64,000 nt of DNA from Escherichia coli (GCF_003334405.1 NZ_QOWM01000002.1), one strand, 5' to 3'; shown: positions 26,110 through 40,035, counted from the first letter of the stretch. Notes: generated by a model not told the origin, from the letters alone. A program made the numbers and translations.

Positions 26110-26305
<196 letters not shown>

Positions 26306-37737: not shown

Positions 37738-38817
37738 ATGTCTAAGATTTTTGATTTCGTAAAACCTGGCGTAATCACTGGTGATGACGTACAGAAAGTT
37801 TTCCAGGTAGCAAAAGAAAACAACTTCGCACTGCCAGCAGTAAACTGCGTCGGTACTGACTCCATCAACGCCGTACTGGAAACCGCTGCTAAAGTTAAAG
37901 CGCCGGTTATCGTTCAGTTCTCCAACGGTGGTGCTTCTTTTATCGCTGGTAAAGGCGTGAAATCTGACGTTCCGCAGGGTGCTGCTATCCTGGGCGCGAT
38001 CTCTGGTGCGCATCACGTTCACCAGATGGCTGAACATTATGGTGTTCCGGTTATCCTGCACACTGACCACTGCGCGAAGAAACTGCTGCCGTGGATCGAC
38101 GGTCTGTTGGACGCGGGTGAAAAACACTTCGCAGCTACCGGTAAGCCGCTGTTCTCTTCTCACATGATCGACCTGTCTGAAGAATCTCTGCAAGAGAACA
38201 TCGAAATCTGCTCTAAATACCTGGAGCGCATGTCCAAAATCGGCATGACTCTGGAAATCGAACTGGGTTGCACCGGTGGTGAAGAAGACGGCGTGGACAA
38301 CAGCCACATGGACGCTTCTGCACTGTACACCCAGCCGGAAGACGTTGATTACGCATACACCGAACTGAGCAAAATCAGCCCGCGTTTCACCATCGCAGCG
38401 TCCTTCGGTAACGTACACGGTGTTTACAAGCCGGGTAACGTGGTTCTGACTCCGACCATCCTGCGTGATTCTCAGGAATATGTTTCCAAGAAACACAACC
38501 TGCCGCACAACAGCCTGAACTTCGTATTCCACGGTGGTTCCGGTTCTACTGCTCAGGAAATCAAAGACTCCGTAAGCTACGGCGTAGTAAAAATGAACAT
38601 CGATACCGATACCCAATGGGCAACCTGGGAAGGCGTTCTGAACTACTACAAAGCGAACGAAGCTTATCTGCAGGGTCAGCTGGGTAACCCGAAAGGCGAA
38701 GATCAGCCGAACAAGAAATACTACGATCCGCGCGTATGGCTGCGTGCCGGTCAGACTTCGATGATCGCTCGTCTGGAGAAAGCATTCCAGGAACTGAACG
38801 CGATCGACGTTCTGTAA
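37738..38817 (+). CDS. fbaA: Fructose-bisphosphate aldolase class II
   Basis: ORF 37654..38817; start trimmed to MSKIFDFVKPGVITGDD (359 aa). Confidence 0.95.
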   Translation: MSKIFDFVKPGVITGDDVQKVFQVAKENNFALPAVNCVGTDSINAVLETAAKVKAPVIVQFSNGGASFIAGKGVKSDVPQGAAILGAISGAHHVHQMAEHYGVPVILHTDHCAKKLLPWIDGLLDAGEKHFAATGKPLFSSHMIDLSEESLQENIEICSKYLERMSKIGMTLEIELGCTGGEEDGVDNSHMDASALYTQPEDVDYAYTELSKISPRFTIAASFGNVHGVYKPGNVVLTPTILRDSQEYVSKKHNLPHNSLNFVFHGGSGSTAQEIKDSVSYGVVKMNIDTDTQWATWEGVLNYYKANEAYLQGQLGNPKGEDQPNKKYYDPRVWLRAGQTSMIARLEKAFQELNAIDVL

Positions 38818-38841
38818 GATATTCCTTTCTGCTTATCTCAA

Positions 38842-38868
38842 GGCCCGCTCTGCGGGTCTTTTTTTCGC
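38842..38868 (+). terminator. Rho-independent terminator after fbaA (copy 1)
   Basis: hairpin gcccgctctgcgggt followed by cttttttt. Confidence 0.75.
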
Positions 38869-38881
38869 CAAAAGCAAAATT

Positions 38882-38980
38882 GCCTGATGCGCTACGCTTA
38901 TCAGGCCTACACGTATCCTGCAATATATTGAATTTGCAGGTTTTTGTAGGCCGGATAAGGCGTTCACGCCGCATCCGGCA
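38882..38980. repeat. REP/BIME pair
   Basis: gcctgatgcgctacgcttatcaggcctac and gccggataaggcgttcacgccgcatccggc. Confidence 0.85.
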
Positions 38981-39009
38981 TGACAAAGCGCACATTGATA
39001 TCTGTCTGA

Positions 39010-39035
39010 GCCCCGCTCTGCGGGGATTTTTTCGC
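39010..39035 (+). terminator. Second terminator-like hairpin (copy 2) upstream of mscS
   Basis: gccccgctctgcggggatttttt, near-identical to the 38842..38868 terminator. Confidence 0.6.
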
Positions 39036-39174
39036 CAAAAGCAAGGTGATTCAGATGAGAAATCTGTGATCTATTTGGCAAAATTATGCTTTATTGTTTA
39101 CCCTTGTCAGACTGCCCGTCATAAGGCGGCGGAGTGTATTTCTCCATTTTGAGTCAGTTGAAAAGGAATATTGA

Positions 39175-40035
<861 letters not shown>

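Follow-up and report, generated by a model that had tools for sequence, protein, structure and literature searches.

REP and BIME sequences, known for some four decades, make up about 1% of the Escherichia coli genome. The closest described relatives of the locus considered here are the BIME-1/RIP (RIB) elements of E. coli, in which inverted REPs with CTAC and GTAG tags and a long linker form a single unit that is extragenic, lies at the 3′ end of a transcription unit, and is present or absent as a whole among strains. This presence/absence polymorphism was reportedly described by Bachellier and colleagues, in 1997, as “excision of a whole BIME-1”. In the literature on these elements (Gilson, Bachellier, Hofnung; Oppenheim, 1993; Boccard and Prentki, 1993), as summarised in Ton-Hoang, 2012 (PMC3333891), a BIME-1 consists of z1 and y REPs joined by a long conserved L linker, often with an IHF site, and is found in single copy per locus. 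How REPs and BIMEs are disseminated is still not understood (PMC8266576; PMC3333891).

Several mobile systems share some of these properties. REPINs mobilised by RAYTs (Nunvar, 2010; Bertels and Rainey, 2011) are likewise REP doublets that fold into one long hairpin, are non-autonomous, and combine vertical inheritance with long persistence. The models proposed for REPINs and RAYTs follow the “peel and paste” scheme of IS200/IS605, which leaves no target duplication, whereas the BIME-1 elements described here are accompanied by duplications of the size of a structure. MITEs of DDE transposons, such as ERIC/IRU and Correia, resemble BIME-1 in being short, non-coding and able to fold into hairpins, with terminal inverted repeats and flanking target repeats, but their duplications are short and fixed at 2-10 bp, whereas those around BIME-1 vary between 18 and 37 bp and correspond to a hairpin. 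Class C group II introns insert after intrinsic terminators, and IS1397, ISKpn1 and IS110-family elements insert into REPs. All of these, like BIME-1, use an intergenic stem-loop as a safe target; unlike BIME-1, they encode their own enzyme and are not known to duplicate a whole hairpin. Slipped mispairing or unequal exchange at short direct repeats flanking a palindrome would explain alleles with one, two or three terminators, but only as later changes of copy number and not as the origin of the first duplication. A 2011 review described REPs as being without MITE signatures (PMC3184786).

The window analysed here is a 64,000-nucleotide stretch of E. coli DNA, one strand of which was read, and it contains a BIME-1 between fbaA and mscS. 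The element itself is an ordinary, long-known BIME-1 and differs in nothing from those already described. What is added here is a family-wide footprint, a duplicated terminator hairpin around the element together with inverted motifs at the element ends. In the open literature we found no mention of inverted terminal motifs of BIME-1 combined with a flanking duplicated hairpin; the primary papers of the 1990s may have it.

The fbaA-mscS spacer and its BIME-1

From the fbaA stop codon to the mscS start the spacer measures 357 bp (Table 1), and the RefSeq record of MG1655 annotates no repeat feature within it. The start of fbaA was inferred from the annotated length of the gene, 1080 nt. Alignment of occupied with empty alleles leaves the 130 bp upstream of mscS unaffected by the insertion.

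Table 1. Features of the fbaA-mscS region, with positions counted from the first nucleotide of the window.
Feature	Position	Strand	Basis
fbaA, class II fructose-bisphosphate aldolase CDS	37738..38817	+	RefSeq annotation of identical DNA; ORF end 38817
fbaA stop codon TAA	38815-38817	+	ORF
Copy 1, proximal fbaA terminator T1	38841..38877	+	Sequence, repeat finder, terminator scan, RNA fold, allele alignment
BIME-1/RIP-type element, 131 bp	38878..39008	+	Allele alignment; paralogues elsewhere; fold
Left REP, z-type, inverted, ends CTAC, TGCCTGATGCGCTACGCTTATCAGGCCTAC	38881..38911	+	Pattern match; inverted repeat I1
Long linker, conserved core GCAATATATTGAATTT	38912..38944	.	Rfam; 16-mer shared across BIME-1 loci
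Right REP, y-type, GTAG before it, GTAGGCCGGATAAGGCGTTCACGCCGCATCCGGC	38945..38980	+	Pattern match; inverted repeats I1/I2
Right-end “B” motif, 28-nt tail, ATGACAAAGCGCACATTGATATCTGTCTG	38981..39008	+	Alignment with paralogues
Copy 2, distal terminator T2	39009..39044	+	Sequence, repeat finder, terminator scan, RNA fold, Escherichia comparison
mscS, small-conductance mechanosensitive channel	39175..40035	+	ORF; RefSeq annotation; allele alignment

The element, from 38878 to 39008, folds into a single long hairpin (-51.6 kcal/mol, z -5.0). Its two REPs each match the REP pattern with no mismatch (38881-38910 and 38950-38979), are inverted relative to each other, and visibly carry the CTAC and GTAG tags of a z- and y-type pair; together they make one extragenic unit at the 3′ end of a transcription unit, between fbaA and mscS, as expected of a BIME-1. 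The core of the linker, a 16-mer, is common to at least about 20 independent BIME-1 loci. Two Rfam families match the element: ES036/CssrF (RF02751) on the minus strand at 38903-38945, with 47.3 bits against a gathering threshold of 37.6, and naRNA4/CssrE on the plus strand at 38949-38984, over the y REP, where the match is partial and its 38.2 bits are below gathering. Both families essentially model the repeat itself. Rare alleles of the fbaA-mscS spacer carry two BIME units.

In strains that have no BIME at fbaA, the element has its nearest paralogues at mog-satP, narP-ccmH and yajD-tsx. From paralogues the full ends of the element can be read, with 5′ TGAGAyTGATGACAAACGCAAAAC on the left and CATGAACAAAGCGCACtTTGTcAACAATCTGA on the right, so that the element ends ...TTGTCAACAATCTGA 3′. 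The two ends are imperfect inverted repeats of each other, and the termini are precise and conserved in at least 12 BIME-1 loci. At fbaA the left “A” motif is without its first ~10 nt (TGAGAyTGAT), and its remaining ~12 nt merge with the target. The right-end motif has diverged from the family consensus; in E. whittamii it is still canonical.

Two copies of the fbaA terminator

The element is bracketed by two copies of one segment in direct orientation, a first of 37 nt (AGGCCCGCTCTGCGGGTCTTTTTTTCGCCAAAAGCAA) and a second of 36 nt (AGCCCCGCTCTGCGGGGATTTTTTCGCCAAAAGCAA), whose starts are 167-168 bp apart. Copy 1 is composed of a hairpin (38840-38860), a run of seven T (38860-38866) and then CGCCAAAAGCAA, and copy 2 of a hairpin (39011-39025), an A followed by six T, and the same final sequence. 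The copies differ by three substitutions and by one T, inserted or deleted, in the T-run, while their final 18 nt are identical; relative to copy 1, a G·T pair in the stem of copy 2 has become C-G. By our own arithmetic, chance would produce an exact 18-nt repeat within 700 bp about 4e-6 times, and a chance repeat is ruled out by the repeat-finder match together with alleles that hold exactly one copy. The existence of such alleles settles the homology of the copies independently. A donor locus that already carried a BIME with the hairpin variant of copy 2 was also considered and rejected, with mog-satP, narP-ccmH and yajD-tsx matching only as far as ~39000-39013; since these paralogues match the element and not the terminator, copy 2 was not imported with the element.

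In both copies a GC-rich stem-loop directly precedes a T-run on the fbaA sense strand, the form of an intrinsic terminator. A terminator scan flags both, copy 1 with a 9-pair stem and T7 and copy 2 with a 6-pair stem and A-T6, and RNA folding gives -14.1 kcal/mol (z -4.6) for copy 1 and -11.6 kcal/mol for copy 2. An earlier note on this DNA had described a segment occurring twice in direct orientation around a REP pair, which the sequence and the repeat finder bear out; its limits, 38847-38877 and 39015-39045, mark the same repeat, with the left edge placed about 6 nt too short. The predicted folds and T-runs also agree with its further suggestion that the two copies would be tandem fbaA terminators.

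Occupied and empty alleles

The occupied allele, with the full spacer, is present in 3726 of 5426 complete E. coli genomes. In genomes without the full spacer the match falls into two pieces that lie 167 bp closer together, and a junction-specific query identifies the single-terminator, BIME-less allele in 1605 of the 5426. Four short alleles were fetched and aligned, and each has one terminator and no BIME. At the junction of the empty allele the copy-1 hairpin is joined to the sequence downstream of copy 2, and the alignment shows copy 1 to have the same sequence as the sole terminator of these alleles.

Outside Escherichia, about 50 loci were collected from further enterobacterial genera, among them Citrobacter, Klebsiella, Kluyvera and Enterobacter, in a scan of genome contigs that yielded no locus from E. 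albertii, E. fergusonii, E. marmotae or Salmonella. Here the spacer measures 158-218 bp, mostly 176-194 bp, against ~190 bp in empty E. coli, and a single terminator was found in all eight of the outgroup spacers that were read (Citrobacter, Klebsiella, Kluyvera, Pseudescherichia and others). What follows the terminator in the outgroups, such as TTGCCTTTTCAATATGAT in Kluyvera, is the positional orthologue of CGCCAAAAGCAAGGTGAT in Escherichia, and this orthology identifies CGCCAAAAGCAAGGTGAT as native target sequence and not as a remnant of the element. Among the E. coli and outgroup alleles examined, none had two terminators while lacking the BIME. From these comparisons we infer that the one-terminator state is ancestral and that the second terminator arose together with the BIME. 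The earlier note had looked to REP-less alleles with a single terminator as a check, and to REP-less strains with both copies as the contrary outcome; the former are found in the 1605 E. coli genomes and the eight outgroup spacers, and the latter did not appear in the alleles examined.

Some genera have longer or different fbaA-mscS spacers, of 405, 494 and 2123 bp (L029, L038, L075), and about 23 loci have no fbaA within 2.5 kb upstream of mscS (Trabulsiella, Citrobacter amalonaticus, Pseudocitrobacter and Buttiauxella among them). These loci have either other inserts in the spacer or a different gene order.

The same footprint at other BIME-1 loci

Empty and occupied alleles can be compared at other loci as well. 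At mog-satP, 467 genomes are occupied and the rest are 170 bp shorter, and the hairpin ATCCCCCCGAGCGGGGGGATC is present once in three of three short alleles and on both sides of the element in occupied ones. At narP-ccmH, where 1505 genomes are occupied and the rest are 176 bp shorter, the hairpin TAGCCCGATGGCATCACCATCGGGCC is again found once in three of three short alleles and on both sides when the site is occupied. At a third locus, downstream of fbp, the 23-nt hairpin AACGCCGGATTGCTCCGGCGTTT is perfectly duplicated in a metagenomic Escherichia contig (L188), and a related genome (L218) has a single hairpin.

For a wider sample, metagenomes were scanned with the 16-mer linker core, which gave many unrelated AT-rich matches and at least 38 true BIME-1 copies among the matches listed. 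These, with narP-ccmH (L086) added and short or duplicate ones removed, make 19 distinct BIME-1 loci, at each of which the 75 nt left of the left REP were aligned to the 85 nt right of the right REP. Scores between flanks of the same locus range from 6 to 28, against a mean of 8.0 (sd 1.6, 99th percentile 13) in 342 cross-locus controls; eight of the 19 loci lie above the control 99th percentile (Mann-Whitney p = 1.5e-5), and two further loci have clear hairpin duplications with altered loops. The matching flank segments adjoin the element ends exactly and are foot-to-foot hairpins of 18-27 nt. The length of the duplication is 37 bp at fbaA, ~21 bp at mog-satP, ~26 bp at narP-ccmH, 23 bp at fbp and 18-27 bp elsewhere, and direct repeats surround BIME-1 at a minimum of 11 loci. 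About half of BIME-1 loci are without a two-sided hairpin, mostly with a hairpin on one side only, or with none. Judged from predicted hairpins, the arrangement terminator-BIME-terminator would be the usual footprint of the BIME-1 family, in about half of its loci.

Where only the hairpin is duplicated, the left copy has no T-run and the right copy keeps it, and at convergent gene pairs the left copy retains the A-run that serves the opposite gene. With the T-run and the A-run divided in this manner, both genes should still terminate, only after transcribing the BIME. At fbaA, by contrast, the duplicated segment also takes in the T-run and 12 further nt, which leaves two complete predicted terminators around the BIME. 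At most loci the two hairpin copies differ at several clustered positions, even with nearly identical flanks, as in the replaced loop at narP, a change of CC to TT at mog and the inverted loop at fbp; these clustered differences are not obviously predicted by simple duplication and drift.

In the K-12-like narP-ccmH allele (L086:350-420) the loop of the left copy has changed from CATCAC to ATTTAT, so that GATTTATCA within the hairpin repeats GATTTATGA, found 16 nt off at the start of the adjacent element; the replacement looks like a templated and not a random mutation. At fbp the empty allele (L218:540-580) has the loop GCAA, and both copies of the occupied allele (L188:11760-11990) have its reverse complement, TTGC, which is either a polymorphism of loop orientation or a relic of an intermediate with a hairpin cap. 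We rejected loop inversion as a general mark of insertion, for it occurs only at fbp, where it is perhaps a lineage polymorphism, and the loops at narP and at L095 are not reverse complements.

The occupied mog-satP allele of the Nissle type (L085:380-560, compared with L089-L091) has extra substitutions in the right hairpin copy and over ~15 nt beyond it, including the end of satP. Its Mog protein accession is shared with two empty-allele strains and its SatP accession with one, and another lineage (L128) has an older, diverged occupied allele. The Nissle allele may have been imported by recombination. At yajD-tsx the tsx/yajD terminator hairpin flanks BIME-1 on both sides in one lineage (L135), and in E. 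coli (L119/L088) the left hairpin and the element start are absent, with the yajD stop adjoining the truncated element, probably through a later deletion of ~40 bp.

The window itself contains a second element of the same family (7184-7322, within 7184-7340), with the left motif GATGACAAATGCAAAAC, z and y REPs, a short linker of non-IHF type and a right motif ending ...TTGTTATCAATCTGG. Its right end adjoins a terminator hairpin, GGCCAGCAAATGCTGGCC, with a T-run, and there is no left copy of the hairpin. Three REP clusters of at least three REPs with short linkers, BIME-2-like or atypical (10440-10570, 14890-15016 and 26120-26290), have no obvious duplicated flanking hairpins. The hairpin-duplication footprint may be specific to BIME-1.

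Proposed hairpin-directed insertion and its alternatives

As far as aligned sequences can show, the terminator hairpin of the target is duplicated upon insertion, the element has precise termini, and the length of the duplication tracks the structure. Our best explanation for fbaA, which we hold to be quite probable, is that insertion of a BIME-1 at the fbaA terminator duplicated 37 bp in a hairpin-directed event and that the repeats recombined later. The comparison of alleles shows that the element entered the intrinsic fbaA terminator in a common ancestor of several Escherichia lineages. By the mechanism that we favour, insertion would be aimed at the hairpin in extruded or single-stranded form, each strand would be broken or re-primed at a different foot of the hairpin, and the hairpin would be copied to both sides of the element by repair synthesis (fill-in). 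Copied in this way, the duplication would have the length of the structure and not that of a fixed stagger. At fbaA the event duplicated the hairpin, the T-run and 12 nt to give terminator-BIME-terminator, as the allele comparison also shows, and afterwards the two copies act as direct repeats, which either add units or delete the BIME with one copy to leave an “empty” allele. The hairpin-directed mechanism is a reading of footprints only.

Its extension to the whole family is more tentative. The proposal that BIME-1 elements are MITE-like units with defined inverted termini, which would integrate specifically at terminator hairpins in a structure-directed manner and duplicate the whole hairpin from foot to foot, is one that we entertain with more doubt than belief. 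Against hairpin-directed insertion stands the atypical form of fbaA itself, where the duplication reaches 20 nt past the hairpin and the left end of the element lacks ~10 nt. The fbaA junction falls within a 9/12 match between the target CGCCAAAAGCAA and the element TGACAAACGCAA, and the left junction looks like the product of microhomology joining or of a later 21-bp slippage deletion. No convincing shared target motif, whether C|T, a tetranucleotide or another, was found at the four loci with known empty sites. The variable length of the duplication excludes a fixed-stagger cut of DDE type; DDE transposons and MITEs leave a fixed short duplication, whereas the range across loci is 18-37 bp.

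The main rival to hairpin-directed insertion is replication template switching (copy-choice) without a transposase, in which the terminator would be copied, replication would jump to a BIME-1 elsewhere and return upstream, and the terminator would be copied again. We consider this somewhat unlikely. Template switching would fit the microhomology at both fbaA junctions, where the left end of the element is truncated exactly at the 9/12 match and the target TTATCTCAAGG resembles the element end AATCTGAGG, and it would fit a duplication whose length differs among loci. It could also produce the clustered, apparently templated changes in one hairpin copy. At narP the loop of the left copy reads GATTTAT, matching the start of the neighbouring element, GATTTATGA; at fbp the alleles have the hairpin loop in opposite orientations; and at two loci (L141, L107) a sequence like the right-end motif of the element lies upstream of the left hairpin. 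However, the same precise termini, TGAGAyTG... and ...CAATCTGA, recur at 12 or more independent loci, which chance microhomology should not reproduce, and similarity between flank and element across loci is at background, with a mean score of 8.0. A general likeness of targets to element ends was rejected on this ground, as it is seen only at fbaA, L141, L107 and narP.

Classical single-strand transposition of the REP pair by a RAYT (TnpA-REP), with the repeat as the target-site duplication of that enzyme, was the reading of the earlier note, and we regard it as unlikely. The REPs of the element carry the GTAG/CTAC tags that TnpA-REP needs, and in vitro the enzyme both cuts and recombines BIMEs at C|T sites, which may lie as far as hundreds of nt away from a REP (Ton-Hoang, 2012; PMC3333891). 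Each terminus of the element has a C|T on the strand that this would require (...CAATC|TGA on one side and the complement of TGAGAC... on the other), and hairpin targets would suit an enzyme that binds DNA hairpins. Yet the IS200/IS605 family makes no direct target repeats (PMC3333891; PMC2817692); its products have a specific short target and no flanking repeats, whereas BIME-1 has repeats at 11 loci or more, and duplications of 37 bp, or of a variable 18-27 bp, fit no described Y1 reaction. The authors of Ton-Hoang, 2012 moreover propose integration only into targets that already bear a REP or BIME. Because known Y1 chemistry gives no duplication, the RAYT route would need an extra, undescribed step. 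Of the earlier claim, insertion with duplication of the terminator stands, and the attribution to a RAYT target-site duplication, as worded, is unsupported and at odds with known chemistry, in that Y1 relatives make no flanking repeats and the length of the repeat is not fixed.

A history in two steps, in which a BIME landed beside the terminator without duplication, terminator and BIME were duplicated in tandem, and the second BIME was lost, seems very improbable. Tandem duplication of a terminator-BIME unit demonstrably occurs, and at several loci only one side of the element has a hairpin, but three events would be needed at each of at least 11 loci, all reaching the same foot-to-foot structure, and the predicted intermediate, terminator-BIME-terminator-BIME without a last terminator, was seen at no locus. 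Ancestral tandem terminators between which a BIME landed, with all single-terminator alleles as deletions, are rejected on the outgroup spacers and hardly credible: deletion between repeats is plausible and probably occurs (strain FACU 2024 is empty on a K-12-like haplotype), unit number changes by recombination and several Escherichia species are occupied, but the spacers of ~50 loci in other genera are only 158-218 bp long, with one terminator in eight of eight read and an orthologous CGCCAAAAGCAAGGTGAT stretch after it, no two-terminator BIME-less allele was seen, and hairpin-BIME-hairpin with single-hairpin empty alleles recurs at three unrelated loci.

The fbaA locus and at least ten similar ones have a reproducible insertion footprint, of precise ends set against a duplicated terminator hairpin. 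It indicates where the element lands (intrinsic terminators) and what the intermediate spans (the hairpin), and it suggests why insertions are tolerated, since termination would be kept on both sides with the element in 3′ UTRs. If hairpin-directed insertion is correct, a bidirectional terminator is split in two and the element placed inside 3′ UTRs; the footprint would then be the first direct sequence evidence for entry of REP/BIME into naive sites, and would define a target for TnpA-REP in vitro. It makes testable both the cutting by TnpA-REP at the feet of terminator hairpins and the gain of insertions in RAYT-less lineages.

Age of the insertion and later changes at fbaA

The insertion is found beyond E. 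coli. E. whittamii (L008) has terminator-BIME-terminator with a decayed distal hairpin, and in Escherichia sp. E1V33 (L007) three terminators alternate with two BIMEs. The left junction ...CAAAAGCAAAATTGCC is identical in E. whittamii and has one substitution in E1V33, and an internal terminator copy with a GGGG and T6 variant is common to both. The same junction and the same variant across species indicate a single origin of the insertion, which is old and dates to an ancestor of several Escherichia lineages; the earlier note had called it a local footprint of REP mobility, but with its presence in other Escherichia species it is not confined to E. coli and Shigella.

The differences in copy 2 can be followed through these species. 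E1V33 has a T-to-G change alone, which breaks a pair, and E. coli adds a G-to-C change on the opposite arm that restores a C-G pair. This compensatory change makes the distal hairpin appear maintained, and suggests that the distal copy in E. coli still works as a hairpin. A simple quasi-palindrome correction was rejected as the source of the copy-2 differences, because the passage from G·T to C-G takes two changes and E1V33 is the intermediate.

The repeats are, on the evidence of the alleles, recombinationally active, with gain of units and loss of the BIME together with one terminator copy. E. coli SW070917 has a perfect tandem of two 167-bp units (terminator-BIME-terminator-BIME-terminator). 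The empty allele of FACU 2024 differs from the haplotype of the window at only 3 of 932 flanking positions, as against 13-23 differences over the same 932 bp in other empty alleles, and the exact K-12-like empty junction is present in 76 genomes. From the near-window haplotype of FACU 2024 and the 76 K-12-like junctions, at least some empty alleles in E. coli are probably secondary deletions between the repeats, and the sharing of the insertion with other Escherichia species likewise means that some may be secondary losses. Most empty alleles lie on more divergent haplotypes and may represent either ancestral retention or loss. The locus is a reminder that “empty” sites can be secondary, and its alleles with one, two and three terminators amount to a clean length polymorphism, prone to recombination, in the interval between two core genes.

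One further allele, in E. coli E69 (L006; CP089930.1), is a mosaic. It and the window differ at 4 of 432 positions on the fbaA side and at 61 of 500 on the mscS side, where it is nearest to E. whittamii (17 of 500), which implies a recombination breakpoint in or near the spacer.
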